Of a stretch of DNA of 33,106 nucleotides, positions 3,776 to 26,516 are shown in pieces. Under the pieces are notes generated by a model. That model did not search any database and had not been told where the DNA came from. It saw only the letters and a program-made list of their open reading frames with translations. How positions within the stretch are numbered: position 1 is the stretch's first letter; each line of letters begins with the position of its first letter. The DNA lies in contig CAZCQK010000002.1 in NCBI GenBank assembly GCA_964500855.1, positions 6,728 to 39,833 on the forward strand. Direction: 5' to 3'. The position numbers were made by a program, and so were the translations under genes. Source of the stretch: an uncultured Candidatus Saccharibacteria bacterium. Its GTDB lineage: Bacteria; Patescibacteriota; Minisyncoccia; Phycocordibacterales; CAIRYW01.

Positions 3776-3795
3776 CCACTACTCATCTACAAAAC

Positions 3796-3826
3796 AAAAC
3801 AGACTGCGCGTTTCGCAGTCTGTTTT
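3796..3826. terminator. Bidirectional rho-independent terminator (rsmE side and tig side)
   Basis: 13-bp stem aaaacagactgcg / cgcagtctgtttt with a 5-nt loop. T-runs follow on both strands. Confidence 0.7.
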
Positions 3827-3856
3827 GTTTCATGGCGTGTTATTCAGAAAATAACC

Positions 3857-5840: not shown

Positions 5841-5869
5841 ATTATACCGCGATGTGTCTACTATGCCAA
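5841..5869 (-). promoter_or_regulatory. Promoter TTGGCA-17-TATAAT, 7 nt upstream of the ATG at 5833
   Basis: Read on the minus strand: TTGGCA (5869..5864), 17-nt spacer, TATAAT (5846..5841), 7 nt, ATG. Confidence 0.5.
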
Positions 5870-5899
5870 AACAAAACCGCCGAGAATGTCGGCGGTTTT
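5866..5899 (-). terminator. Terminator after ppa
   Basis: Stem aaaaccgccga (5873-5883) / tcggcggtttt (5889-5899), 5-nt loop. A T-run follows on the minus strand. Confidence 0.65.
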
Positions 5900-5903
5900 G
5901 TTT

Positions 5904-7628: not shown

Positions 7629-7658
7629 TAAAAAATAAAGCTCGCCTCGAAGCGAACT
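7629..7658 (-). terminator. Intrinsic terminator-like hairpin inside the nusA leader (possible attenuator)
   Basis: Minus-strand stem agttcgc/gcgagct (7658..7639) with one G-U, which would be an A-C mismatch on the plus strand. ttatttttt follows. It lies about 20 nt upstream of the nusA ATG. Confidence 0.45.
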
Positions 7659-7702
7659 CTTTCTGCCACACAATAATATCATGTAAATCGGTACTCGGCA
7701 AG

Positions 7703-7743
7703 GTGCATAACTATTGGACATCGGATGTCCAATAGTTATGCAC
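7703..7743. repeat. 41-bp perfect palindrome (20-bp arms around one central base), with a third half-site at 7771-7780
   Basis: gtgcataactattggacatc g gatgtccaatagttatgcac. The half-site agttatgcac recurs at 7771-7780, abutting a minus-strand TATAAT (7770..7765). Confidence 0.8.
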
Positions 7744-7855
7744 AGGGCATCGAGCCGTCTATATATTATAAGTTATGCACTGTTGACTTGATTGAAACTT
7801 TGAGATGTGTGATACAATAATTGACGTAGCATACTATTTATTTCCAAAGTTCATC

Positions 7856-10084
7856 ATGAAGTTAAAATATCTATTTAGCACATTCTTATTGGTTACCTCT
7901 GTTTGTTTTGGTCTATCTATTAATACTGTTTATGGGGCTGAATCAACAGACTCAATCAAGCCAGTTTTAAGTATTTCTGTATCTAATGTTAGGGTTTCTT
8001 CTAGTCAATATTCTAAGGGAGATACGATTGGTGGTAGCTTTGTGGTAACAAACAGAGACAATCACGATATAGATGGTCTCTCATTTAGGGTACAGATAGG
8101 AGCAAATTATAGCGAACCAGCAGCTGGTTATAAGTTTGCGGGGACTTTTTTGGATGTTTCAGCTAGACAGGGAGCTTTCTACCTAGCAAAAGGCCAGTCA
8201 AAAACCCTTAATTTTGAATATAAAATACCAGATTTCTTGAGTGGCAAGAACCTTGGGGTTGAGATTGCGGTACTTGCTTCAGATGGGAGGTTGATTGCTT
8301 GGGGAGACAGTGATTATTTCACAATTTCAGGTAATTCTAAGATTGTTTCTATCACTGATGCCTCACTTTTGCTTTCTAATGGTAAGAAATTCGGTTTAGG
8401 AGACGGTCCTACTATATATAGTGACAAGGATCCAAAGAGTATTGCTCTAAACCTCTCACTCAAGAACACTTCAGGTAAAGATGTTGTTATTACTCCGGTC
8501 TTGAGTAGTTATAGGCAAAATGACGCAAAATACGCAGTATCGAAAGAACTCACTAAAATTACCCTTGCTAAAGGCAAAACCTCTTCATTTAAGATTGATT
8601 TACCTGATCAGTCGTATGTTCCTGGCATATATTTCGCTGAGCTTGTACTCAAAGATGAGTCTGGTTCACAACTAGAATCTCGTATAGGTGCTAGGTATAT
8701 AGTAGGAGGTAATATTGCTGTTGTGCACAGTGCCAATGTAAGCAACGGTGTTCTAAATGTTAATGATAAGTTTAGTTTGGCTGTTGATTTGACTGGAAGG
8801 GCGCCAGATATAGGTGCTCTATTGGCGGGCAGTAAGCCTGAGGATTCTCCTAAGGGTAAAGTAAGTATTCAGATTTATAACGAAAGAAATGAGTTGGTTG
8901 CTGGGAGTGAAGAGGATTTCAATATTTTGGGTGATACGTTCATTCAGAAAGATTATTTCGCAAAGGTGGCTTCGAAGGCTCTCAGGTTACACATGGTTGT
9001 GACCGATGACTTTGGTAAGCAGATATTGGATTATTCAAAGGAATTGAGTCTAGATTATAAGACCAAAGCGGCAATGCCTTATGATGAGAGTGTTCAGTCG
9101 GTACCATACTATATTATAGTATCAGGGCTTATAGTGCTTGCTATTATCATGATACTTATACTGATACTCATGGTAAAAAGCAGGATTAGTCGAAAGCAAG
9201 GCATGATGGCTATTGTTGGAGTACTCTTAGCATCATCAATACCGCTTTCAACTCTTGCTGGATGTGAATCAGCTGGTGTGAGCTTCACTAGTATCTCTAC
9301 CCCATTTGATTATGAAAGATTTGGTCCTGGAGTGCTTCTATATACAAGTGGAGCGGTATCATATAACGCATGTGAAAACACACCTGCGGAAATAGATTCT
9401 CTTACTGTTACATTCCAAAATCAGACAGTAAATGCTAAACCTGTGGGAGGAAGCTGGTCTGTGGGTAGAACTGGAGGACATGGATGGTACCCTGTGGGAG
9501 CTATGTTTATGGCGGGACCACTACGTGTACCAACTGCTCCTGGTACTTATGTTATCAATTATTCTGTTAAGTACACTGCTGGAGCATGTAGTGGAACCGG
9601 TAATGCTGTGCGACATATCGTGGTGGAGCCGAGTGATAGTACAGGAGGATGTGGTGCAGGACAGTTTTATTGTGACGCCACTGGTTCGTGCATGACTAAC
9701 TCTGATCAAAGTAAGTGTAATGATACAGCTAAGTACACTCCATTTAAGATAAATTCAAATATCCCAGCTCTAAATGGGCCGGTGAAGCTAAGAGGAAGAC
9801 TGACAGCAAGACCTCCAATCGTTGATAAGGGCGATAGTTGTGTGATTGAGTGGGGGAATGACTTTAATTCTTATGATCAGTACACACTCTGTAAGTTTAC
9901 AGCACCAAACATATCACTAGAATTCAAACCTGGCGATGATGCGTCACCGACATCCACAGTAATAAATAACGTAAACAACGATATACCTTATCAAATGGTT
10001 TGTGGAGAGATTGATGGTCTGACTCCGTCTACCACAGATAATGGAGTGTGTAGATTAAACTGGAAATCAAAAGAAATTAATTAA
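7856..10084 (+). CDS. Large surface protein: signal peptide, three CARDB/Ig-like repeats, TM hairpin, cysteine-containing ectodomain, shared C-terminal domain
   Basis: Start at MKLKYLFSTFLLVTSVCFGLSINTVYGAES (signal peptide); the track ATG at 7805 is less likely. About three beta-sandwich-like segments of roughly 110 aa. TM helix YYIIVSGLIVLAIIMILILILMV, then KSRISRKQG, then a second hydrophobic segment ending in LAGC. The C-terminus is homologous to that of the 11225..13150 product. Confidence 0.8.
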   Translation: MKLKYLFSTFLLVTSVCFGLSINTVYGAESTDSIKPVLSISVSNVRVSSSQYSKGDTIGGSFVVTNRDNHDIDGLSFRVQIGANYSEPAAGYKFAGTFLDVSARQGAFYLAKGQSKTLNFEYKIPDFLSGKNLGVEIAVLASDGRLIAWGDSDYFTISGNSKIVSITDASLLLSNGKKFGLGDGPTIYSDKDPKSIALNLSLKNTSGKDVVITPVLSSYRQNDAKYAVSKELTKITLAKGKTSSFKIDLPDQSYVPGIYFAELVLKDESGSQLESRIGARYIVGGNIAVVHSANVSNGVLNVNDKFSLAVDLTGRAPDIGALLAGSKPEDSPKGKVSIQIYNERNELVAGSEEDFNILGDTFIQKDYFAKVASKALRLHMVVTDDFGKQILDYSKELSLDYKTKAAMPYDESVQSVPYYIIVSGLIVLAIIMILILILMVKSRISRKQGMMAIVGVLLASSIPLSTLAGCESAGVSFTSISTPFDYERFGPGVLLYTSGAVSYNACENTPAEIDSLTVTFQNQTVNAKPVGGSWSVGRTGGHGWYPVGAMFMAGPLRVPTAPGTYVINYSVKYTAGACSGTGNAVRHIVVEPSDSTGGCGAGQFYCDATGSCMTNSDQSKCNDTAKYTPFKINSNIPALNGPVKLRGRLTARPPIVDKGDSCVIEWGNDFNSYDQYTLCKFTAPNISLEFKPGDDASPTSTVINNVNNDIPYQMVCGEIDGLTPSTTDNGVCRLNWKSKEIN

Positions 10085-10085
10085 T

Positions 10086-11225
10086 ATGAAGTTAAGGTTA
10101 CCAAGAGTAAAGAATTTTTCGGAGGAGCGTTCGACTGAATTTGTATCCGCTTTAGCATTCTTTGCTTCTATTGGCGTTGCTTTATTACTTTCTTACGTTA
10201 AGACTCCTGATTACGTCAAATTATCTTTAGATTTAACATCTGGTAATTTTGCTGATGTTATCACCATGGCTGAGCAAGTTGTGTCTCGCAGACCTAATGA
10301 TCTGGACGCCGTACATTTATTGGTTGGAGCTTATCTTAGCGAATCCACTATCACAGGCAATCCAGTATGGAAAAATAAAGCAATAGCACTGATAAATAAA
10401 ACCCTCAGTAATTATCCAGATGATCCAGAAACATTGAGACAACAGGGGAGATATTACTTAATGTCTAATGCAACAAAACTTGCATTGAATTCTTACCAAA
10501 AGGCTTTGAGTCTAGATAACAACGACTCTAGGTCTTGGAGTGAGTTAGCGAATCTCTATCAAAATATTGGTGAATTTAGCCTCTCAAGATCTTTGGTTGT
10601 TAATGCTCTACGAATAAATCCAGCTGATAGTGTCGCTAGGGTAGCAGAGATTAGACAGAATTTCTTCGATAAAAAGACCGATCTGGCGGTTACTCAATCA
10701 TTAAATCTAGTTGGCACGAGTCATGATATCCTGGCGAAGGCTAGTGTTTATGAAATGCTTGGGTTAGATGCTTTAATGAATAACAACTTTGATGAGGCTG
10801 ATAAGTACTTCTCCCAATCAATAGGTATTAATCCTCAAATGCTTTTGTCACTTACGGGCAAGGCTTCAGCACTCGTTGGTAAGTATTTCAATGTTTCTCC
10901 AAGCAGAAGAGCTTCTGTATTGGCAGAAGCAAGTGATTTGGCTAACAAGGCAATTGCAATCAAACCTGATTATTCATTGGCATACTTGGTATTACAAAAG
11001 GTTGCTATTCTAAATAATGACAGCCATCAGGCAGAGATTTTAAAGGCTCAAATAATGAAGTCGTTAAAGACCGATACCTTAACGCCGATTACAATCAAAG
11101 AAAAGATAAACAACTCTTTAACTATTAAGCCCGTCACTAATTTTAAAGTTATTTCTATCAAGCAGATAACACCAGATTCCATTTCTGCTACCAGCACCAG
11201 AGTTATAATCCTAAAAAATAAGTAA
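10086..11225 (+). CDS. Membrane-anchored TPR-repeat protein
   Basis: N-terminal TM helix FVSALAFFASIGVALLLSYV, followed by multiple TPR-like 34-aa units (for example YQKALSLDNNDSRSWSELANLYQNIGEFSLSRSLVVNALRINP). The start lies 1 nt after the upstream stop. Confidence 0.8.
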   Translation: MKLRLPRVKNFSEERSTEFVSALAFFASIGVALLLSYVKTPDYVKLSLDLTSGNFADVITMAEQVVSRRPNDLDAVHLLVGAYLSESTITGNPVWKNKAIALINKTLSNYPDDPETLRQQGRYYLMSNATKLALNSYQKALSLDNNDSRSWSELANLYQNIGEFSLSRSLVVNALRINPADSVARVAEIRQNFFDKKTDLAVTQSLNLVGTSHDILAKASVYEMLGLDALMNNNFDEADKYFSQSIGINPQMLLSLTGKASALVGKYFNVSPSRRASVLAEASDLANKAIAIKPDYSLAYLVLQKVAILNNDSHQAEILKAQIMKSLKTDTLTPITIKEKINNSLTIKPVTNFKVISIKQITPDSISATSTRVIILKNK

Positions 11226-13150
11226 TGAACAAAAAATACATATTTTATATTCTCAGTTTTTTTGTTCTAATCACTTCTTTAGTTTTTGTTTCGAACGTTT
11301 TTGCTTGCAATGATCCTTATGCTTGCAATTATGATTACGATGATTATACGTCATGTAATTATGTGAGCTGTAATGACGGTAGCTGTGTTGGTAGTAGTCT
11401 TGAGTGTGCCCAATCTACATGTGAAGATCAGAGCATGATTACCTGTCCTGATGATGGTAGTTGTGCATTTAGCTATGCAAGCTGTCCATGTAGCTTTGGA
11501 GAGTCTAGGTGCGATGATTTAAATTGCTCAAGCAATTGCTCCGAGTCTAATTGTTCGTATTCTGGTAGGTATTACTGTCCTGACGGTACATGTGCTGATA
11601 GCGCAAATGATTGTGCGTGTACTCCTGACAGCACCAATGCCGACTGTATTGTTTATTATTGCGGCAGTCCTGGGGCATTAAATACCGATACTCTCGCCGG
11701 TTGCCAAGAAAAGAATCCAAACAAGAACTGTATACCATCAGATGGTTCTTGTGAGTATTGTACTCCTGACAGCACCAATGCCGACTGTATTGTTTATTAT
11801 TGCGGAGTATCGACTGCACTAAACTTTCAAACAAAAGCAGCATGTCAGGCGGCAAATAACAATATGAACTGTATCCAAGCTGACAATCATTGCCAATACT
11901 GTGATATAACAAGCAATGATCCTAGATGTATCGTCTATTTTTGTAACGATGAGACAGCTTTGAATAGTCAGAGTACTCTGGACTGTCAAGCAAATAATCC
12001 AAACAAGAACTGTCAGATTGATAATTCACTCTGCATGTATGACGGTGGACATACCGAGAAGTATTGTCCAACAGACCCAAACGAGCCAGCAAATTGTGAG
12101 AGTGATCCTAATAATCTTTGTGAGCCAGATAACTCAGTATGTCCTCTAACATTCTGTGGCTACGATGTTGTGGTTCAATATCAGAAATTAGATGTGATTT
12201 ATAATGTGGAGATTATCGCTGCTTATTTCTATGATGCAAACATAGAAAGCTGTGTGCCACCTAACAGTAATTATATCCAGCAAATTATTGCAGATACTTT
12301 AGATCCATTACCAACACCACCACCGAGCGCAACTACTGCTACTGGTGTGCCGATTACTCCGATAGTTGATCAGTGTCCAAACATATCCGGTAACCAAGAT
12401 TACGCTGAGTTTATTGATACTTACACACGAGATTCTAATGGTGATTGTATTATACCTGTCTGCCCTGATGGTGAGGAGTGGGATAAGAGTTCTAGAGGAT
12501 GTGTCGAGAGTAATCAGTTACATGTTGGAGCATGTAATGGTGCTCTTACGACTATATCTCCTAATGATGTTACTGTAGGAATGCCATTATCTAATAATAT
12601 TGGTTGTACTCGTGGTACAGGAGGACCTGTATCATTAACTTCAAATATAAACGGAGATCCGCTTTATGTGTGGCAGTGTGTTGATACAGGAGGATCGGTA
12701 AGTTGTAATGCTCCCGTAGGGCAGTGCCCTGCTAACACTACTTATTGCTATGGCACATGTGTTAGTGGTACATGTGAACCACCAGTGGATGATGGACCAA
12801 ACCAAGACCTCGGAGGACACGCGGGTCCAGTAGAACTCAATCCAAATCTCAAGGTTACACCAATCATTAATCCTGGAGGTACCTGCGTGGTTAGTTGGGG
12901 TAAGGATGCTTTCGGGGTTAATCAAGGTGTGTTCCTCAAATCAACAACCACAACCGTATGTACCTTCTCAGATCAGAAACAAACATTCTTCTCGTTTAAC
13001 GTTACTGATCCAACTGCTCCAACATCAAAGACCCAAACAAACGTGTTGAAGGATGAGAATTATATTCTCAAATGTTCTGAGCCTACGGGGGAAGTGGCTA
13101 CCTCGACAGGTTCGTGTAGGTTGAATGTCAAACCATCAGAGTTTAATTAG
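11225..13150 (+). CDS. Secreted cysteine-rich repeat protein with the shared C-terminal domain
   Basis: Signal/anchor YIFYILSFFVLITSLVFVSNVFA. Dense CxDGSC-type motifs. Three tandem 47-aa Cys repeats. A PTPPPS linker. The C-terminal 108 aa align with the tail of the 7856..10084 product. TAATG stop/start overlap with the TPR gene. Confidence 0.8.
   Translation: MNKKYIFYILSFFVLITSLVFVSNVFACNDPYACNYDYDDYTSCNYVSCNDGSCVGSSLECAQSTCEDQSMITCPDDGSCAFSYASCPCSFGESRCDDLNCSSNCSESNCSYSGRYYCPDGTCADSANDCACTPDSTNADCIVYYCGSPGALNTDTLAGCQEKNPNKNCIPSDGSCEYCTPDSTNADCIVYYCGVSTALNFQTKAACQAANNNMNCIQADNHCQYCDITSNDPRCIVYFCNDETALNSQSTLDCQANNPNKNCQIDNSLCMYDGGHTEKYCPTDPNEPANCESDPNNLCEPDNSVCPLTFCGYDVVVQYQKLDVIYNVEIIAAYFYDANIESCVPPNSNYIQQIIADTLDPLPTPPPSATTATGVPITPIVDQCPNISGNQDYAEFIDTYTRDSNGDCIIPVCPDGEEWDKSSRGCVESNQLHVGACNGALTTISPNDVTVGMPLSNNIGCTRGTGGPVSLTSNINGDPLYVWQCVDTGGSVSCNAPVGQCPANTTYCYGTCVSGTCEPPVDDGPNQDLGGHAGPVELNPNLKVTPIINPGGTCVVSWGKDAFGVNQGVFLKSTTTTVCTFSDQKQTFFSFNVTDPTAPTSKTQTNVLKDENYILKCSEPTGEVATSTGSCRLNVKPSEFN
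11618..12040 (+). repeat. 3 x 141-bp in-frame tandem repeat inside the cysteine-rich gene
   Basis: Repeat units start at 11618, 11759 and 11900. Units 1 and 2 share an identical 47-nt run (11618-11664 = 11759-11805). Unit 3 has diverged but keeps the Cys spacing. Confidence 0.85.
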
Positions 13151-13196
13151 AAATAGTAAAACTATCACCAGTTGGTGATAGTTTTACTATTTTATA
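13151..13196 (+). terminator. Long hairpin (terminator or attenuator) between the surface module and pilB
   Basis: Perfect 19-bp stem aaatagtaaaactatcacc (13151-13169) / ggtgatagttttactattt (13174-13192), 4-nt loop, T-rich 3' side. Confidence 0.6.
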
Positions 13197-13207
13197 TGTC
13201 TTGTTTT

Positions 13208-13223
13208 TGTTATAATAATCGCA
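13208..13223 (+). promoter_or_regulatory. Extended -10 promoter TGtTATAAT, 7 nt upstream of the pilB ATG
   Basis: tgt tataat at 13208-13216, then 7 nt to the ATG at 13224. No SD box. Confidence 0.5.
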
Positions 13224-14975
13224 ATGATCCTTAATGAAAAGCATTTAGCAGAATTTTTGGTGGACTCAGGTCTCGTTAGTAGAGCTGATGTTGACGTTGC
13301 TCGTAGTGACGCAGAAAAGAAAGGTATTGGTCTTGCTGAAATGCTTGTTTCGATGGGTAAGGTTGCAGAAGATGATATGAGGAGGGCTAATGCTTATGTT
13401 TTGGGTATGCCGTTTGTTGATTTGGCTTCTACTAAATTGGATTTTGATATCCTATCATTGATACCAGAACCTATTGCTCGCAAGCATAATATCATTGCTT
13501 ATAAGAAGAATGGTATGAATCTTGAGGTTGCTATGCTTGATATCACAGATCTAGAAGCAATAGACTTCGTAAAGAAAAAGACCGGATTTAAGATAATGCC
13601 AAGACTCACATCTGCTGAGTCTATGAAGAGTTCACTCTTGCAATACCAAAAGAGTCTCAAGGCCGATTTCGGTGATTTGATTCAAAAGGAATCAGCCAAG
13701 ATCACTGCTCTTTCTGAAGGTAAAGATGAAGATCAGAACGAGGATGATTTGAAGAAGATGGCAGAAGATTTGCCTGTGGTGCGTATCGTGGATACACTTT
13801 TGAAACACGCAATACTTCAAGATGCTTCTGATATTCATATTGAGCCTTATGAGAATGAGGTGATTGTTAGGTATAGAATAGACGGTCTTCTTCATGATGC
13901 GATGGTGTTGCCGAAAAATGCTGGAGCAGGAATAACCGCGAGAATAAAGGTGCTTTCCAATCTCAAGCTAGATGAGAAACGTTTACCGCAAGACGGTAGG
14001 TTTAAGATTGATATGGATGGTCAGAGGGTGGCATTTCGTGTATCAATACTCCCTACATACTTTGGTGAGAAGACTGTTATGCGATTACTTCGCGATAATG
14101 TTTCTGGGTTTTCACTTGAGTCGCTTGGATTTCATGGTGTGTCACTTGAGAGGCTTCATGAAGCAACGAGGCTTACAACCGGCATGATACTAACAACTGG
14201 TCCAACAGGTAGCGGTAAGACCACTACTCTCTATACACTTTTAGATATTCTAAATACGCCAGATGTGAATATCTCAACAGTAGAAGATCCGATTGAGTAT
14301 CAAATGAAGAGGGTAAATCAATCTCAAGTAAAGCCTGAAATCGGATTCACATTCGCTAATGGTCTACGCTCACTTGTGAGGCAGGACCCGGACGTAATCA
14401 TGGTGGGGGAGATTCGTGATAATGAGACAGCAAGTCTTGCTATTAATGCTGCACTCACTGGTCACTTGGTACTATCTACTCTTCACACCAATAGCGCGGC
14501 AGGTGCTATACCAAGACTTCTTGATATGCATGCCGAGACCTTCCTCCTGGTATCAACACTTAATGTGGTTATTGGTCAGAGATTGGTTAGAAGGCTCGAG
14601 AAGCCGAAGGATAAATACTTTTTATCTAAGGCTGAATTGGCTGAATTGGCAAAGAAAGTCGATGTTTCGAAGGTTCTTTCTACTTTGATTGAGGAAAACA
14701 TTGTGCCCAAAGATTCTGACTGGAGTAAGGTGCCGTTTTGGAAACCAAACCCAACAGCAGAATATGCTGACGGTTTCCACTCTCGAATTGGTATTCATGA
14801 AGTACTCAAAGTTACACCAACAATAAGAGAGATAATCATGAGGGGAGGGACATCTGATGATATAGAAGCGGAGGCGAAGAAAGAGGGGATGCTTACTATG
14901 ATTGAGGATGGAATAGTAAAGGCAGTGAAAGGGCTTACGACTATTGAGGAGGTTTTGCGAGTAATATCAGAGTAG
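13224..14975 (+). CDS. pilB: Type IV pilus assembly ATPase (GspE/PilB family)
   Basis: N-terminal GspE_N-like domain, Walker [22 protein letters not shown] Asp box and [12 protein letters not shown] His box. Confidence 0.9.
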
Positions 14976-14976
14976 C

Positions 14977-16179
14977 ATGAAATACAAGGTAAATTATAAA
15001 ACACCAGACGGCACTTTCGGGGATAGAAGTTTTGATGCTTCAGATAAGTATGCGCTTTTCAAGATTTTGAAGAAGGAAAACCTTGAACCTGTTAGTATTG
15101 TTGAACAAAAGAGTTTAGAAATAAACATCCCGTTTCTTCATAGTAAGGTTAAAACTTCAGAGAAAATATTTTTTGCTCGCAATCTTAGTGCCATGCTTAA
15201 TGCTGGGCTCGCACTTTCGAGAGCGCTTATGGTAATGGAGAAGCAGGCTAAAAATAAGAAGCTAAAAGAAGTTCTTGTTAAACTGAATGCATTCGTTACT
15301 GAAGGTAAGCCATTTCATGAAGGTATGGAGGCGTTTCCTGACACTTTCAATCAATTGTTTATCGCGATGGTTAAAGCGGGCGAGGAGAGTGGTTCTTTGA
15401 CAGAGTCTCTTTCAATTGTTGGTAATCAGTTGGATAAAAACTATGCCTTGGTAAAGCGCGTCAGAGGAGCGCTCATATATCCTGCAATCATTATTACTTT
15501 GATGATTGGTATTGGAATACTGATGCTTACTTATGTTGTGCCTTCGCTTACTCAGACTTTTGCTGACTTACATGCTGACTTACCAACATCTACCAAGATT
15601 ATTATTGCCACAAGCGATTTTCTTCAGAATCATTTTATTATCGCACTTGGACTTATTGTGGGGTTGGTTATTCTTGTTGCAACGTTTCTTAAGACCAAAA
15701 GAGGTCAGGTATTTCTTGATTGGATTGTAATCCACATGCCTTTAATATCTCCAATCGCGATTGAGACCAATACAGCCCGTACCGCAAGAACATTTTCTTC
15801 TCTACTGTCTGCTGGTGTGCCCGTGGTTAGATCTGCTGAAATTACTAAAGACGTTATTCAGAATTCATATTATAAGTTTATACTTGGTGAGACAGAGGCT
15901 GTGATAGAAAAGGGTCAGCCAATCTCTGAAGTGGTTGGTAGGTATCCTAAGTTGTATCCAGCATTCTTCGTTGAGATGATCTCGGTAGGTGAGGAGACAG
16001 GTAATCTAGCTTCTATGCTAAAACAGGTTGCGGATTATTATGAGAATGAAGTAGAACAAAGAACCAAGAACCTCTCTACTGTAATCGAACCGCTACTTAT
16101 GGTATTTATTGGTCTTGCTGTTGGATTCTTTGCTATATCTATGATTACTCCTATGTATACAGTTTTAAATAATATCTAA
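14977..16179 (+). CDS. pilC: Type IV pilus platform protein (GspF/PilC family)
   Basis: Two GspF repeats ([19 protein letters not shown].. and [17 protein letters not shown]..) and three TM segments. 400 aa. Confidence 0.9.
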
Positions 16180-16622
16180 TGAATAATAGAGGATTTTCAG
16201 CTCTAGAGATTATTATTACGATTTCAATCTCATTCATACTAACTGCTATATCAGTCTCTATGTTTTCTCGTCTAAGTAATAATACTTCACTCGATAAGGA
16301 TGCCAATATTGTGCTTTCTTATATAAGTAGAGCGAGAAGCGCGGCTATTGATTCTAAGGATGCATTGGCTCACGGAGTGAAGTTTGCTAGTACTACTGTT
16401 TATATATATTCTGGCACAACATACCCTGGCACCCATAGTGAAAGCTATAATCTGCTTTCTGGGGCTAACATTTCTTCGTTAAGTTTATCTAACAGATCAA
16501 CTTCTTTTTATTTCAATAAATTAACAGGTACCCCATCTGCTACTGGGACTGTCACAGTTAGTCGAAATGGTTCATCAAAAAGCATTATTATTTACGCCAC
16601 AGGTGTTTCTGAGATACAATAG
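16179..16622 (+). CDS. Type IV pilin/pseudopilin (class III signal peptide)
   Basis: MNNRG|FSALEIIITISISFILTAISV: G-1, F+1, E+5 and a hydrophobic helix. TAATG overlap with pilC. Confidence 0.8.
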   Translation: MNNRGFSALEIIITISISFILTAISVSMFSRLSNNTSLDKDANIVLSYISRARSAAIDSKDALAHGVKFASTTVYIYSGTTYPGTHSESYNLLSGANISSLSLSNRSTSFYFNKLTGTPSATGTVTVSRNGSSKSIIIYATGVSEIQ

Positions 16623-16633
16623 TATTAACAGAA

Positions 16634-17122
16634 GTGTCTTATATAAAATCTAAAAAATCTGGTGCAAGTTTGGTTGAGGTGGTTATCGCATCTTCGATAA
16701 TCAGCTTAACTCTTGTTACCCTGGTTACAATCTACAGTCTTGTTGCTAGATATTCGCTTAATAATGTTCGTAATCTAAAAGCTACCGCACTCGTTGAAGA
16801 AGAAGCAGAGGTATTGGGCTTTCTTAGGGATTCTGGTTGGACCAGAAACATTACTAGTCTAAGTAATAACACAACTTACCGACTCTATTGGAACGGTACC
16901 TCGTGGGTCGCATCTACCACTGCTCCATTACTTGAGAATCGATACGATGTTACTTTCATACTGTATCCTGTTTATAGGAATGCTAGTTTTAATGTTGTAA
17001 CTTCAGGAGGAACACTGGACACCGGAAGCAGGAAGGCCGTTTTGACTGTTTCTTGGAGAGAGAGTCATGCAACGACAACCAAAACAGCCGAAGTGTATTT
17101 ATTTAATATTGCTAACAACTAA
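16634..17122 (+). CDS. Minor pilin-like protein
   Basis: KKSG|ASLVEVVIASSIISLTLVTLV has a prepilin-like cleavage motif with E+5. GTG start as given in the ORF track. Confidence 0.65.
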   Translation: MSYIKSKKSGASLVEVVIASSIISLTLVTLVTIYSLVARYSLNNVRNLKATALVEEEAEVLGFLRDSGWTRNITSLSNNTTYRLYWNGTSWVASTTAPLLENRYDVTFILYPVYRNASFNVVTSGGTLDTGSRKAVLTVSWRESHATTTKTAEVYLFNIANN

Positions 17123-17640
17123 TGAAAAATTTAAATTCAAATAAAGGTTTCTCATTGGTTGAACTTATCACTTATACCGCACTACTTTCTATTCTTGTTG
17201 TGGTTATTACTAATGTGATTGTTATGCTTTATAACGCAAATGCCGTGGTAAAAGCAACAAGAAATGTTGAGAATTCGGCCATTACTGCAACAGATAAACT
17301 AATAAGAGAGATAAGAGCAGCTTCGTCAGTAGATCTGGTAAACTCTTCTTTAAATAATGATAATGGAATACTGAAGTTAAATATCTCCGATTCATCTGGT
17401 TCTAGAACTTCTAGATTTTATATTCAGAATAATCGAATTATGATTGACGATAATGATGTACAGACTGGTCCACTTACAATATCTGATACTATCGTGTCTT
17501 CTCTTAGGTTTTATTATCTCGCAACAACAACATCCAAGGCAGTTAAATTCGAGATGACTCTTGTTGGACCACCCTCAACCCCTGGAATTAGTGAAAAGTA
17601 TTATGGCACGACCGTTCTTAGAGGATCATACGTTCAATAA
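17122..17640 (+). CDS. Minor pilin-like protein
   Basis: NSNKG|FSLVELITYTALLSILVVVI is a canonical prepilin N-terminus. TAATG overlap with the upstream gene. Confidence 0.75.
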   Translation: MKNLNSNKGFSLVELITYTALLSILVVVITNVIVMLYNANAVVKATRNVENSAITATDKLIREIRAASSVDLVNSSLNNDNGILKLNISDSSGSRTSRFYIQNNRIMIDDNDVQTGPLTISDTIVSSLRFYYLATTTSKAVKFEMTLVGPPSTPGISEKYYGTTVLRGSYVQ

Positions 17641-19478
17641 TGAAAACAAAATCATCAAAAAATAGAGGTCAGGTAGTAATCTTAACTGTGATATTTTTCC
17701 TAATCATTTCTGTTACTGTCATTGCTGCGGTCGTTATTCCAACAGCAAATCAAGTTAGATCTGTTACAGAGCTTTTGAGAGCAAAGCAGGGATATATGGC
17801 TGCTGATTCTGTGAATGAAGACGCTTGGTATAGACTAAGTCTTAACAAAACCTTACCTTCTACAATGACCTTGCCTTTTGCGACTCCGGTATCTACTTCG
17901 GCAACTGTCACATCATCGAGTGGGTCTGTTTCTATTAAGACTACTGGAGCTGATGGTTCTACCGTGAGACTTGCTCAAAGCACTTTCTCAGCCGGTCAAT
18001 CAGTCGGATTTCCGTATGCTCTCCAGACTGGTACAGGAGGAATATCGCTTACAGGAGGTGCTCACATAACTGGAGATGTTTACACTAATGGAAGCATTAC
18101 TTCTGATTCTTCTGGACCATATATAACAGGTTCTGCTGTTGCAGCTAATAATGCTTCAGCCTATATTGACCAAACAAATGGTTATGCCGATGGCACAACA
18201 CCTCTTACAATGAGTATTGGTATTAATGCTTCTTCTCAGGATGCATCACAGAGCTTTCAGGTAACGACCGGAAGTCTACCGATGACTGCTATAAGGCTTT
18301 ATATGAAGAAGTTTGGTTCACCAGCTAATTTGACTGTTCGCATAGTATCTGACAATGCTGGATCGCCAGGAGGTAGCGCTCTTTGGTCAGGTACTTTGAA
18401 CGCTAGTCTAGTGACCACTAATTTTACCTATATTACTTTAAATGTTTCTCCATCGCTTACCTTAACTCCGAATACTAAGTATTGGATTGTGTTTGATTCC
18501 AGTACCGCTAGTTCAGCTAAATATTATGTTACTGCCATGACCAACAATGCTTACTCATATGGGGTAGCAAAGCTTAGTTCTGGGTGGAATAGTACGAATG
18601 GAGGTACGTGGAGTACTGTATCACCAAGTACAGGGGACGCTTATTTTGATATTTTCTTAGGTGGCCTTCCAAATAAAATAAGTGGTGCTAGTCAGTACCA
18701 AAGAGTGTTAGTCGGTACAGCAGGGACTGGATTTGCTTGGGCAGATGAGATTGATAGCGCGACTTTGTATGGGACGGGCTACTGCTTTGCTAGTAATTAT
18801 ATGTATAACAGCGGTGGTACTTCTAAGTACTGTGATGAATCACGTTCAAATCCAACCCCAGCAACATATCCAATCTCTGATACCCAAATAACAGGTTGGA
18901 AGAATCTAGCGAGCGCAGGTTGGACTTATAACGGTAACCTGACTTTGGGAGGAGGTATAAGCACAACAACTGGAGCACTCAAAATAAATGGTAATTTAAC
19001 TTTGGGAGGAGGAGCTACGCTTTCTATTACCGCTCCAGTTTGGGTTACTGGATATATTGATCTAGAGGGAGGAAGTAAGATTAAGGTACCTTCATCAGCT
19101 GGGACTAGTGGTGGCATAATTATTGCTGACGGTAGGATATTCGTCGGAGGAGGATCTGACTTTAGAGGCTCAGGTACAGCAGGGAGCTACATGATGGCTA
19201 TTTCCAATTCACTTTGCCCTTATAGTGGTACCTGCTCTGGTAATGGTAGCGGGAATGCGATAGATATCGAGGGAGGATCAGGCTCCGTTATATTGGTTGC
19301 ATTAAATGGTAAGGTATCTATTCAAGGAGGAGCACAGGCTAATGACGTTGTGGCTAAGCAGATATGGGTGGATGGTGGGTCTTCGGTAGTTTATGATCCG
19401 AATCTTGTTGGACCGAGCTTTGTGGGCGCTTCTTCTGGTTCGTGGAAGGTGGGAAGTTGGGGTGAGGTGTCTGATTAA
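17640..19478 (+). CDS. Large PilX-like pilus-associated protein with a G/S/T-rich repetitive C-terminal region
   Basis: N-terminus KNRGQVVILTVIFFLIISVTVIAAVV resembles PilX_N, with no E+5. The C-terminal third has periodic GG-containing strands (LTLGGGISTTTG, LTLGGGATLSI, IDLEGGSKIKV, IFVGGGSDF, IDIEGGSGSV, SIQGGAQAN, VDGGSSVVY), which suggests a beta-helix. Confidence 0.7.
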   Translation: MKTKSSKNRGQVVILTVIFFLIISVTVIAAVVIPTANQVRSVTELLRAKQGYMAADSVNEDAWYRLSLNKTLPSTMTLPFATPVSTSATVTSSSGSVSIKTTGADGSTVRLAQSTFSAGQSVGFPYALQTGTGGISLTGGAHITGDVYTNGSITSDSSGPYITGSAVAANNASAYIDQTNGYADGTTPLTMSIGINASSQDASQSFQVTTGSLPMTAIRLYMKKFGSPANLTVRIVSDNAGSPGGSALWSGTLNASLVTTNFTYITLNVSPSLTLTPNTKYWIVFDSSTASSAKYYVTAMTNNAYSYGVAKLSSGWNSTNGGTWSTVSPSTGDAYFDIFLGGLPNKISGASQYQRVLVGTAGTGFAWADEIDSATLYGTGYCFASNYMYNSGGTSKYCDESRSNPTPATYPISDTQITGWKNLASAGWTYNGNLTLGGGISTTTGALKINGNLTLGGGATLSITAPVWVTGYIDLEGGSKIKVPSSAGTSGGIIIADGRIFVGGGSDFRGSGTAGSYMMAISNSLCPYSGTCSGNGSGNAIDIEGGSGSVILVALNGKVSIQGGAQANDVVAKQIWVDGGSSVVYDPNLVGPSFVGASSGSWKVGSWGEVSD

Positions 19479-24313: not shown

Positions 24314-25030
24314 ATGTCTAAGGCTTTGATATTTACTGATGGTTCATCGAGAGGTAATCCTGGATTGGGAGGGTATGGTGCTATTGTGTGTTATAAGAAT
24401 GAGAAGGGTAAGATGGTTCGAGAGCTTGGAGGCTTTGAGAAGAGCACTACCAACAATCGTATGGAGATGACTGCTGTTATAGAAGCATTGGTGTTTGCCA
24501 AAGAAAGTGGAGCGGACGAGATTTTGTTATTTACTGATTCGGAATATGTGAAGAAAGGGGCGACGGAATGGGCCTATGGATGGGCATCAAATAATTGGAA
24601 GACTAAGGCCAACATGCCCGTACTCAATCAAGATTTATGGCAGAAAATGTTAGTGCTTGTTGGGTCTCTAGATGTTACGTTCAAGGTTATACCTGGGCAC
24701 TTTGGTATCGCTGGTAATGAGAGGTGTGATGTTATCGCAACATCATTTGCGGATAGTAAGCCCACACCATTATTTAATGGAGCTTTTGATGATTATAAGG
24801 TGAGTCTCGAAGTCGACGTAAGTCATGGGAGCCTTAGTCAGCCCAAGGTTATGCGAAGCAAATCTGCCAAGGCATATTCTTATGTTAGTGAAGTCGGGGG
24901 TGAGGTCAGAGTCCATAAGACTTGGGCCGATTGCGAGAGTAGGGTGAAGGGAAAGCGAGGTGCACGTTACCGCAAGGCGCTCAGTAAGAATGAAGAACTA
25001 AGTTTAATAGATGAGTTCTCCAAATACTAA
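24314..25030 (+). CDS. rnhA: Ribonuclease HI with a C-terminal hybrid-binding (Cauli_VI-like) domain
   Basis: RNase H core: FTDGSSRGNPGLGGYG, NNRMEMTAVIEAL, TDSEYV. The C-terminal AYSYVSEVGGEVRVHKTWADCESRVKGKRGARYRKALSKNEE matches the pattern of the RNase H1 N-terminal/viroplasmin domain. ATG 24314 preferred over TTG 24296. Confidence 0.85.
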   Translation: MSKALIFTDGSSRGNPGLGGYGAIVCYKNEKGKMVRELGGFEKSTTNNRMEMTAVIEALVFAKESGADEILLFTDSEYVKKGATEWAYGWASNNWKTKANMPVLNQDLWQKMLVLVGSLDVTFKVIPGHFGIAGNERCDVIATSFADSKPTPLFNGAFDDYKVSLEVDVSHGSLSQPKVMRSKSAKAYSYVSEVGGEVRVHKTWADCESRVKGKRGARYRKALSKNEELSLIDEFSKY

Positions 25031-26516
25031 TTATTTTTATTCTGTTGTTTTAGGATTTATTCTTGGTATTGCCCTTGGAAGTTTGGGACTACTTACTTCT
25101 CTATATACTTTGGTTTTGGTTATATGTGTTGGTGTGTTTTGCTTCCTATTGCTTCATAGCAAGGTAAAGGCGAGACCCAAAGCCCATATAATACTCATGC
25201 TGACTGTGGCTCTCGGCTTTGCTTCGCTTGGTGCTATGAGAGTAGGGGACTTTAATAAGGTAAAGGATTTGAGATTTGATGGAGAAGTCGGTAGTCACAT
25301 CAAAGTTCTTGGTACTCTAAAGGATGATTATGATGCGAGAGATCGGAGCTTGATTGTTACGATGGAGGCTTATGAAGTAAACGGAGAAGTCTTTGATACA
25401 CAGAGAACGGATGTGATAGTTAAGTCAGAAGTTTCTGATTTGAGATTTGGGCAGAGGGTGCTATTTGATGGAGTGCTTGAGAGGCCCAAGAATTTTGATA
25501 ATAAATTTGATTATGTGAGTTATCTCAATAAGCAAGGTATAAGGTATGTATTGAATGATGCACACCTAATCAAAGCAAAGGAACGCACTCTAAATATCTA
25601 TTCAATACTTTTTGATACAAAGAAATGGTTCATCCATAATATTGAGAAGTTAGTGCCTGAGCCGGAGAGTGCGCTTGCTTTGGGAGTGACTATTGCTGGT
25701 AAAGGTTTGTTACCTAGTGATGTTAAAAATGACTTTGTTAATGCGGGGCTTATTCACGTGGTGGTGCTTTCTGGATATAACGTATCTCTAGTTATACAGG
25801 CTATGCTTCGGTCCCTGTGGTTTCTCGGGAGGAGGGCGAGAGTTGTGGGTGCGCTTATTGGAGTCATGGTGTTTGTGATTATTGTGGGTGCGAGTGCGCC
25901 CGTACTACGCTCTGCTATTATGGCGAGCATTGTGCTTATTGGCGCATTGAGTTATACCAAGGTGGCTCAAAACAGAGCGCTGTTTGTTACTCTATGCATC
26001 ATGATGCTTTCTAATCCACTTGTTATACTTGATGCCTCATTTATTCTTTCTTTTCTTGCTACGTTTGCGATTGTGAATGTTGTGCCTGTTATCACCCCTT
26101 TGCTTTCTAGAGTGACGAGTAGATTTAAAATCAAAGAGACTTTAGCAGAGACTCTTGCTACTCAGTTATTCGTCGCACCTTACTTACTATTCGCATTGGG
26201 TAGGGTATCACTTATTGCGCCTCTATCTAATCTAGTCATACTACCCATGATACCTAGTATTATGATGCTTACGTTTGGCCTCAGTCTTATTTACTTTATC
26301 CCTCTCATCTCTACTTTGACTGCCGGAGCTTTATTTATTGTTTGCTTTCTAGTTATTCGGCTTGTTGGATTATTTGCTTCAATACCGCTTTCTTCTATTG
26401 CTTTTAGTATTAACTTTTGGTTGATGGCAATGATATACATTATATACCTCGTCTTTATTTATATGATAAACAGAAGAAGGTTGCATACCAAAAGCAAAGT
26501 AGTAACATTAGGTTAG
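25011..26516 (+). CDS. comEC: ComEC/Rec2 DNA-uptake channel: OB (DUF4131-like) and competence domains only
   Basis: N-terminal TM helices, an OB-like soluble segment, and a polytopic competence domain with GLIHVVVLSGYNVSLV. There is no beta-lactamase domain. It overlaps the rnhA 3' end by 20 nt. Confidence 0.85.
   Translation: MSSPNTNYFYSVVLGFILGIALGSLGLLTSLYTLVLVICVGVFCFLLLHSKVKARPKAHIILMLTVALGFASLGAMRVGDFNKVKDLRFDGEVGSHIKVLGTLKDDYDARDRSLIVTMEAYEVNGEVFDTQRTDVIVKSEVSDLRFGQRVLFDGVLERPKNFDNKFDYVSYLNKQGIRYVLNDAHLIKAKERTLNIYSILFDTKKWFIHNIEKLVPEPESALALGVTIAGKGLLPSDVKNDFVNAGLIHVVVLSGYNVSLVIQAMLRSLWFLGRRARVVGALIGVMVFVIIVGASAPVLRSAIMASIVLIGALSYTKVAQNRALFVTLCIMMLSNPLVILDASFILSFLATFAIVNVVPVITPLLSRVTSRFKIKETLAETLATQLFVAPYLLFALGRVSLIAPLSNLVILPMIPSIMMLTFGLSLIYFIPLISTLTAGALFIVCFLVIRLVGLFASIPLSSIAFSINFWLMAMIYIIYLVFIYMINRRRLHTKSKVVTLG

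Follow-up and report, generated by a model that had tools for sequence, protein, structure and literature searches.

The DNA considered here is a 33,106-nucleotide stretch of contig CAZCQK010000002.1 (positions 6,728 to 39,833) from an uncultured Candidatus Saccharibacteria bacterium, hereafter called the window. It carries three tightly packed genes, here named A, B, and C, directly upstream of a type IV pilus (T4P) operon. Gene A (7856-10084, plus strand) encodes 742 amino acids (aa), gene B (10086-11225, plus strand) 379 aa, and gene C (11225-13150, plus strand) 641 aa. The TAA of A ends at 10084 and is followed by a single T and the ATG of B at 10086, and the TAA of B and the ATG of C overlap as TAATG at 11223-11227; these open reading frames (ORFs) and junctions are just as an earlier note on this DNA, made from its letters alone, had described them. 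Downstream, a gap of 73 nt (13151-13223) separates C from the pilus operon (13224-19478, plus strand), and upstream of A lies the divergently oriented nusA gene. The trio is real; related genomes keep it beside pilus genes, and its sequences change very rapidly. An alternative reading of A from an ATG at 7805 would give 759 aa; the start at 7856 is preferred because a conserved extended -10 element (7810-7818) overlaps the upstream ATG and because a signal-peptide-like N-terminus begins at 7856. The relatives that carry similar loci are assigned to Patescibacteria, Saccharibacteria, or Parcubacteria, in line with the bacterium resembling the candidate phyla radiation that the note had in mind.

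The three proteins and their shared C-terminal domain

Protein A consists, in order, of a signal peptide, three immunoglobulin (Ig)/MG-like β-sandwiches, a transmembrane (TM) hairpin, a further β-sandwich, a Gly-rich linker, a small Cys knot, and a C-terminal domain (CTD) referred to below as A-type. In an AlphaFold2 (AF2) model built on a nine-sequence alignment (mean predicted local distance difference test score, pLDDT, 75), the three β-sandwiches span aa ~38-396, and residues 475-590 form another one, which is followed by a poorly modelled Gly/Cys linker and a C-terminal β-sandwich. Helices modelled at 418-442 and 450-459 coincide with two hydrophobic segments, seen by hydropathy as 19-mers at aa 412-446 and 449-470, so that both approaches agree on the TM hairpin that the earlier note had placed here alongside the signal peptide. 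The three "CARDB/Ig-like segments" of the same note hold at the level of the fold, as three β-sandwiches, but not at that of the family: A has no match in Pfam, CARDB included (E<=1), nor does it match any NCBIfam or PADLOC profile. Foldseek, in which the whole models of A and C were compared with PDB and BFVD and all matches had TM scores below 0.2, returned only generic strings of MG/Ig-like domains for A (complement C3, alpha-2-macroglobulin; TM score ~0.18). Mature A has 11 cysteines, all within aa 470-732, the last third of the protein, and its orthologues are 27-50% identical to it.

Judged by its architecture, A is built from two modules that are fused here but separable. The N-module comprises the three Ig-like domains with the TM segment or hairpin, and the C-module comprises the second hydrophobic, signal-like segment, the Cys domain, and the CTD. 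In particular, free-standing 280-aa proteins with their own signal peptide stand in for the C-module at three related loci (L009, L010, and L018). The junction (9089-9265, plus strand; aa 412-470) contains a TM helix, a basic loop KSRISRKQG, and the second hydrophobic segment, which ends in LAGC. This lipobox-like ending (LAGC or LASC) occurs only in the three closest orthologues, and cleavage or lipidation at this point is only a possibility.

Protein B has a single N-terminal hydrophobic segment (aa 16-40, with the TM anchor at ~20-38), followed by tetratricopeptide repeats (TPRs) that score above the curated Pfam cutoffs for this repeat superfamily: TPR_2 (3.8e-14; 52 bits against 27), TPR_1 (5.2e-11; 42.3 against 27.8), and TPR_19 (42.6 against 25). 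The description of B as a TM-anchored TPR protein is thus borne out. As B has no cysteine, it has no lipobox and is not a lipoprotein. Its NCBIfam matches (PrsT, PilW, MamA, and others) all fall far below their cutoffs; the second best is TIGR02521 (PilW), with E=7.6e-11 and 42 bits against a cutoff of 154, and the nearest PDB sequences are designed consensus TPRs. On this evidence, B is classed as a generic TPR protein and not as a PilF/PilW-type pilotin, a distinction that the earlier note had also drawn. The alignment of orthologues shows a conserved C-terminal tail, K(I/V)IS.KK. Moreover, the tail that precedes the anchor carries one to four Lys/Arg residues in nine of nine homologues, which makes an outward orientation of the TPR domain likely.

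Protein C begins with a signal-peptide-like N-terminus and contains 58 cysteines (9.0%), and was rightly described as a 641-aa secreted Cys-rich protein. The extension of the label "cysteine-rich" to the whole module fails for A, with its 11 cysteines, and for B, with none. The signal peptide of C is followed by a variable, disordered Cys-rich region, three ~47-aa Cys repeats, a conserved central domain, a domain of the form G.C(G/N)...W.C...GG..C.A, a Cys knot, and a C-type CTD. No match to C was found in Pfam, NCBIfam, or PADLOC, and its AF2 model (pLDDT 69) gave only weak fibronectin type III (Fn3)/Ig-like matches in Foldseek. The three disulfide repeats (11612-12034, plus strand; aa 130-270) follow the pattern C.PDSTNADCIVYYCG..ALN..T...CQ..N.N.NC...D..C.YC and are modelled with a pLDDT of 72-90 as a strand-helix-strand pattern that occurs three times. 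An exact 16-aa repeat is present at aa 132-146 and 179-193; Tandem Repeats Finder reported no DNA-level tandem repeat in C, the repeats being too diverged at the DNA level. Among the invariant alignment columns of C, 26 of 83 are cysteines, and the cysteine skeleton is, on this alignment, what stays fixed in the protein.

A and C resemble each other over their last ~145 residues (BLASTP E=3e-10). When 23 C-termini of both families are aligned, a CTD of ~100 aa emerges with four invariant cysteines and an invariant end, CR[LIV]N....E.N-COOH, in which the invariant non-Cys residues at the extreme C-terminus are Arg, Glu, and Asn. The A-type CTD (9776-10081, plus strand; aa 641-742) ends in CRLNWKSKEIN and scores 117 bits with a hidden Markov model (HMM) of the domain, and the C-type CTD (12824-13147, plus strand; aa 534-641) ends in CRLNVKPSEFN and scores 110 bits; matches to this HMM reach 1e-26 to 1e-37. 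The two types are distinguished by their ends, ...NW.Y.EVN in the A-type and ...N.K..EFN in the C-type. Each pilus-linked locus has exactly two copies, one of each type, and the HMM found nothing in the window beyond the copies in A and C. In the AF2 models, the CTD has a pLDDT of 78-91 in A and 77-91 in C, with the last four and the last five residues, respectively, below 50. A terminal motif that is predicted to be flexible and is nevertheless invariant is as would be expected for a partner-bound peptide.

Comparison of the CTD profile with PDB sequences gave chance-level matches only; the domain weakly matches (E~1e-3) the two-Cys Ig-like repeats of giant Parcubacteria surface proteins. Its end, ...CRLN....E.N, includes no terminal hydrophobic segment and has no NCBIfam or Pfam match, and the CTD shows the features of none of the known C-terminal sorting signals considered (LPXTG, PEP-CTERM and related signals, and the CTD of the type IX secretion system, T9SS). 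The T9SS domain is likewise a ~100-aa β-sandwich at the extreme C-terminus of otherwise unrelated exported proteins; the CTD of A and C differs from it in lacking a curated sorting-domain match and in having four invariant cysteines and a distinct E-x-N end. T9SS is not known from the host lineage. An isopeptide bond formed by the terminal E-x-N was considered and dropped, since the CTD has no invariant Lys. A variant CTD that ends in ...RC...P.VIER-COOH was found in P0026 and in the 942-aa A-like protein of locus L017 (L017:1088-3916), which suggests a wider family of tail-tagged exported proteins.

The families are rare. Among 5.8 billion clustered proteins, C has four homologues and A, apart from itself, two. 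When 1.84 billion representatives were searched exhaustively by profile, ~11 C-like proteins of full length and ~10 A-like ones, fragments included, were returned, and all other matches were confined to the low-complexity Cys repeats. A protein search with the CTD profile gave three fragments only, and a metagenome scan for a distant C-like group (P0017-P0024) found nothing. By these counts, the A and C families are real but narrowly distributed. Searches of Pfam, NCBIfam, PDB sequences, and Foldseek placed none of the three proteins in a characterised family, in agreement with the view of the earlier note that they are not standard T4P components, and the retrieved literature contains no paper describing an A-B-C module. 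A, C, and the CTD all fall outside the curated families, and the combination of paired CTD proteins with a TM-anchored TPR protein is a new architecture; in kind, the module belongs with the accessory clusters of surface-protein genes that lie next to pilus operons.

Gene order, divergence, and transcription signals

In the window and in loci L007 and L008 (PilB 85-86% identical to that of the window), nusA lies divergent from the series A, TPR gene, C, pilB, and pilC. Locus L014, from a "Patescibacteria group bacterium" (PilB 80%), has A, two TPR genes, a 902-aa C, and pilB. In L009 (PilB 80%), L010, and L018, the place of A is taken by the 280-aa protein, in which a signal peptide of its own precedes a small Cys domain and an A-type CTD; it is followed by a TPR gene and, where the contig continues, by C and pilB. 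The contigs of L010 and L018 stop before pilB, and L018 has an additional TPR gene upstream. Locus L019 (PilB 85%) has a divergent C followed by pilB and pilC. Five loci (the window, L007, L008, L009, and L014) therefore share the order CTD protein, TPR, C, pilB, and L019 shows C followed by pilB; in all six loci whose contigs reach that far, a C-type CTD gene adjoins pilB. In the window, L007, L008, L009, L010, L014, and L018, the TPR gene (or, in L014, the pair of TPR genes) is flanked by a single A-type and a single C-type CTD protein. From these comparisons, the invariant core is an A-type CTD protein, one or more TPR genes, and a C-type CTD protein.

More distant relatives carry parts of A. 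In L015 (PilB 68%), a 1003-aa A-like protein, composed of the A N-module and Fn3-like domains with no CTD, is encoded between nusA and pilB, directly upstream of the latter. In L016, from a Parcubacteria metagenome-assembled genome (MAG; PilB 44%), a full co-directional pilus cluster (L016:1249-19462) contains pilB, a response regulator gene, pilT, pilC, a pilin gene, pilD, three further pilin genes, and a PilX-like gene, and ends in genes for two co-directional giant proteins of 1360 and 1808 aa. Each giant begins with an A N-module (three Ig-like domains and a TM hairpin) and continues with many ~95-aa two-cysteine Ig-like repeats. By its gene content, L016 links the A N-module to pilus genes a second time, in a different organisation. 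Relatives of A are also encoded away from pilus genes: in a Saccharibacteria MAG (L011/L012), two tandem paralogues lie with tgt on one side and uvrB on the other, and L017/L013 has the 942-aa protein. The latter, whose C-terminus is the VIER variant, carries three Cys-rich domains of the form G.CG...W.C.G..GG..C; directly upstream of its gene lies one for a thioredoxin-like CxxC protein (L017:20-973), which may be a dedicated oxidative-folding helper.

Two further readings of the locus were set aside. That of a mobile element was dropped, there being no flanking integrase or repeats and the position being stable across genomes; that of a defence system was dropped after a PADLOC scan.

Divergence differs sharply along the locus. 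Relative to the window, the proteins of L007 and L008 are 86 and 85% identical for PilB, 88 and 88% for NusA, and 76 and 77% for PilC, but only 50 and 48% for A, 32 and 35% for B, and 48 and 40% for C. The corresponding values for L014 are 80% (PilB), 85% (NusA), 48% (PilC), 27% (A), 21% (B), and 30% (C), and the pilin-like proteins are 61-66% identical in L007, the only one of the two closer loci with such a value, and 31-43% in L014. On these figures, the divergence of the module equals or exceeds that of the pilins (31-66%). Moreover, C (579-902 aa) and its A-type partner vary in length and domain content between relatives. Such a pattern fits exposed surface proteins under diversifying pressure and not conserved machine parts. 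Six near-identical metagenome copies of the locus (99.6-99.95%) showed no hypervariable segment in the module; these loci had been selected for an identical C and are thus uninformative on selection.

A putative promoter element of the A-B-C unit, the extended -10 TGATACAAT (7810-7818, plus strand), is conserved in the nusA/A intergenic alignment of the window, L008, and L014, and its equivalent in L007 is TGCTATTAT. In L014, the sequence TACAAT lies 7 nt before the ATG of A, in the same geometry as the -10 box of pilB described below. The nusA/A intergenic region of the window also contains a perfect 20-bp palindrome (7703-7743; GTGCATAACTATTGGACATC / GATGTCCAATAGTTATGCAC; dG -33.8 kcal/mol, z=-6.6), which is an insertion relative to L007, L008, and L014 and may serve as an operator or be a small element of the palindromic kind. 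In the same region, a terminator-like hairpin with a T-run (7637-7660, minus strand) precedes the likely ATG of nusA (7608) and may be a nusA leader attenuator.

The hairpin and the extended -10 that the earlier note had reported in the gap before pilB are both present. The hairpin (13151-13192, plus strand), found by a terminator scan, is a perfect 20-bp inverted repeat with a dG of -28.9 kcal/mol (z=-7.4; none of 200 shuffled sequences equally stable). It most likely acts as an intrinsic terminator, because its AAA-stem-TTT form matches that of two other gene-end hairpins (3792-3830 and 5869-5903). Relatives do not share this element: no hairpin is present in L007 or L008, and that of L009 is unrelated. 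The extended -10 of pilB, TGTTATAAT (13208-13216, plus strand), lies 7 nt before the pilB ATG, and its TATAAT is invariant, 7-9 nt upstream of that ATG, in four of four lineages (window, L007, L008, and L009). This spacing indicates a dedicated pilB promoter, with an mRNA that appears to be leaderless or near-leaderless, as far as its start can be inferred from the position of the box. These signals favour two adjacent transcription units, with read-through possible in relatives without the hairpin.

The neighbouring pilus operon

The genes downstream of C form a T4P core operon, with a PilB-type ATPase, a PilC-type platform protein, and prepilin-like genes. In particular, pilB (13224-14975, plus strand) matches PF05157 and PF00437 (MshEN and T2SSE), and pilC (14977-16179, plus strand) matches PF00482 (T2SSF). 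Three pilin-like genes (16179-17640, plus strand) have N_methyl and GspH matches with E-values of 1e-4 to 8e-3; among them, only pil3 passes the Pfam cut-off (22.0 against 21.2 bits). The operon closes with a gene for a 612-aa protein with a pilin-like hydrophobic N-terminus (17640-19478, plus strand). Within this last gene, ~235 nt (18596-18830) are unaligned in the metagenome copy L001, where ~100 nt of different sequence stand instead and gene calling gives no intact 612-aa gene; the difference suggests strain-level variation or mis-assembly in a large pilin-like gene.

The window ORFs that were scanned include no member of the pilD, pilM/N/O, pilT, or secretin families, and a secretin (PilQ) partner is likewise missing from the precomputed Pfam calls of the locus. 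The remainder of the window holds housekeeping genes and comEC. The latter (25011-26516), ~5.5 kb downstream of the pilus operon, encodes a ComEC competence channel (Competence and DUF4131 domains), and its proximity, together with the lack of pilT in the window, is compatible with a DNA-uptake role for the pilus.

In L007, a diversity-generating retroelement (L007:15083-17475), absent from the window, lies between pilC and the minor pilin genes. Its target is a 171-aa ORF with a variable repeat (15452-15573), which differs from the 122-nt template repeat (15901-16022) only at template adenines; a bAvd gene (16026-16352, minus strand) and a reverse transcriptase gene (16444-17475) follow.

Interpretation of the module

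We interpret the trio, with moderate confidence, as a lineage-restricted, fast-evolving surface complex that is genetically coupled to the pilus locus. A, B, and C would make up a small operon of their own, with their own extended -10 and, in this genome, a terminator-like hairpin after C, and their products would form a complex outside the cytoplasm. In this complex, A would be held in the membrane by its TM hairpin and C would be soluble and scaffolded by disulfides, and both would present an Ig/Fn3-like CTD of ~100 aa with two disulfides and an exposed E-x-N-COOH tail. B, which is encoded between A and C and probably translationally coupled to both, would most likely recognise the CTDs or their tails and serve, close to the membrane, as a scaffold for docking or assembly. 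As a fast-evolving cell-surface structure, the complex would most plausibly take part in attachment or host recognition. Within one Patescibacteria clade, genetic coupling would tie it to the pilB-pilC-pilin operon; it would stand outside the conserved pilus motor and be transcribed at least partly alone. A role in attachment or host recognition beside the pilus fits the position of the genes, their divergence rates, and the Saccharibacteria literature, in which T4P and several adhesin-like envelope proteins are essential for epibiotic growth (PMC10633639, PMC11623550).

Known systems offer partial parallels. PilF/PilW/Tgl/TadD pilotins are, like B, TPR proteins in or next to a T4P locus with a presumed extracytoplasmic role in assembly; B differs from them in its N-terminal TM anchor, in its lack of cysteine, in its score of 42 bits where 154 are required, and in being only 21-35% identical between relatives whose PilB is 80-86% identical, and no secretin family is encoded by the window ORFs scanned. 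PilY1/PilC and the modular pilins of Streptococcus sanguinis are thought to confer binding specificity on the pilus or the cell. Like A and C, they are large exported proteins that are encoded beside pilus genes and vary between close relatives. A and C differ from PilY1/PilC in having no Pfam match, in carrying Sec signals rather than class III (prepilin) signals, and, for A, in being anchored by a TM hairpin; no β-propeller of the PilY1/PilC kind is present in either model or among the top 50 Foldseek matches listed for either protein. The docking of E-x-N tails or CTDs on a TPR array is proposed by analogy with Hop/CHIP and PEX5, TPR receptors that bind the C-terminal tails EEVD-COOH and PTS1, respectively; these receptors are cytosolic and eukaryotic and share no homology with B beyond the TPR fold. 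A further parallel comes from adhesin-like envelope proteins of Southlakia epibionticum identified by transposon sequencing (Tn-seq), Patescibacteria surface proteins with β-sandwich or lectin-like folds that act with T4P in host attachment (PMC10633639). Those proteins carry VCBS, dockerin, and Fn3 domains (PMC10633639), and a module of a TPR protein with paired CTD proteins is described neither in the S. epibionticum Tn-seq work (PMC10633639) nor in the TM7x pilus study.

Several observations weigh against a surface complex coupled to the pilus. All TPR/C-linked loci belong to a single clade, with PilB identities of 80% or more, whose synteny extends to nusA, trigger factor, TIM, and PGK, and the linkage to pilB may be inherited gene order; the synteny with pilB-pilC that the earlier note had proposed to test is kept in relatives, but adjacency alone is no proof of function. 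B and C are both absent from L015 and L016. Co-occurrence with T4P, which the same note had proposed to examine, does not extend to every relative of A: the two paralogues between tgt and uvrB in L011/L012 (804 and 842 aa) both have a CTD, with no PilB, other T4P gene, or TPR gene within 10 kb, and the 942-aa relative in L017/L013 lies on a contig with no PilB or other T4P gene (in L017, 8.6 kb that also lack a TPR gene). Because of these two cases, the A family is judged not to be obligatorily linked to pili. The charge bias around the TM helix of B is weak (one to four Lys/Arg on the N side against one to three on the C side). Moreover, a conserved promoter element of its own precedes pilB, and the window has a strong hairpin just after C. 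Independent regulation had been named beforehand as evidence against the link, and here the conserved pilB -10 and the hairpin point to independent transcription, but L007 and L008 lack the hairpin.

Alternatively, the trio could encode ordinary lineage-specific envelope or surface-coat proteins without pilus function, which lie beside pilB only through gene order inherited in the clade. The order trigger factor, nusA, module, pilB, and, further on, TIM and PGK has syntenic flanking housekeeping genes in L007, L008, L014, and L015; both the module and pilB have promoter elements of their own, with a terminator-like hairpin between them, and A-family paralogues occur elsewhere without T4P. However, the module and pilB always run in the same direction, 30-73 nt apart, while nusA is divergent, and the adjacency to pilB outlasts the turnover of the module itself (an A that is fused in some loci and split in others, a single TPR gene or two, a C of 579-902 aa). 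The A N-module is also linked to the differently organised Parcubacteria T4P cluster, and this explanation is regarded as somewhat unlikely. That the trio supplies pilus assembly parts, in place of PilM/N/O or a pilotin-like TPR protein, appears very improbable. It would agree with the lack of pilM/N/O, pilD, pilT, and secretin families among the window ORFs scanned, with PilW as second-best NCBIfam match of B (E=7.6e-11), and with the membrane association or export of all three proteins. However, the PilW match reflects generic TPR similarity (42 against 154 bits, designed consensus TPRs as nearest PDB sequences, and no lipobox in B), and the module diverges three to five times faster than PilB and PilC, unlike machine parts. 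L015 and L016 have pilus genes and lack B and C, the families are extremely narrow, and other Pil genes may lie elsewhere in the genome.

The shared CTD raises a further alternative, in which A and C are cargo and the CTD is an export or display signal that is read by the pilus machine (resembling a type II secretion system) or by the fibre, with B as its receptor. Two otherwise unrelated proteins do share a C-terminal domain with an invariant exposed tail, and the module lies immediately upstream of the pilus motor genes in six of six loci. However, both A and C already have Sec-type signal peptides, a monoderm-type envelope, such as Patescibacteria are generally known to have, would need no second translocation step, and CTD proteins occur without adjacent T4P genes, which leaves the cargo model with little probability. 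A bolder reading of the locus is doubtful, though a shade less so: the CTD with its invariant E-x-N-COOH end would be a new docking signal, and B a membrane-anchored receptor that passes two different CTD proteins to the T4P machine or holds them there. Together they would form a hitherto unknown system, coupled to the pilus, by which monoderm-like Patescibacteria display host-recognition proteins that diversify rapidly.

How the ultrasmall Patescibacteria recognise and hold their hosts is largely unknown, and the genetically supported players are only T4P and a few surface proteins (PMC10633639, PMC11623550). The value of the present locus is limited by the confinement of its families to a narrow uncultivated clade and by the fact that unknown surface proteins are common in such genomes. 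Within these limits, it supplies concrete candidates for attachment, with a conserved arrangement, a new CTD with an invariant tail, and a membrane-anchored TPR partner, and the module diverges at rates of the kind usually seen in proteins that hosts or phages put under pressure.

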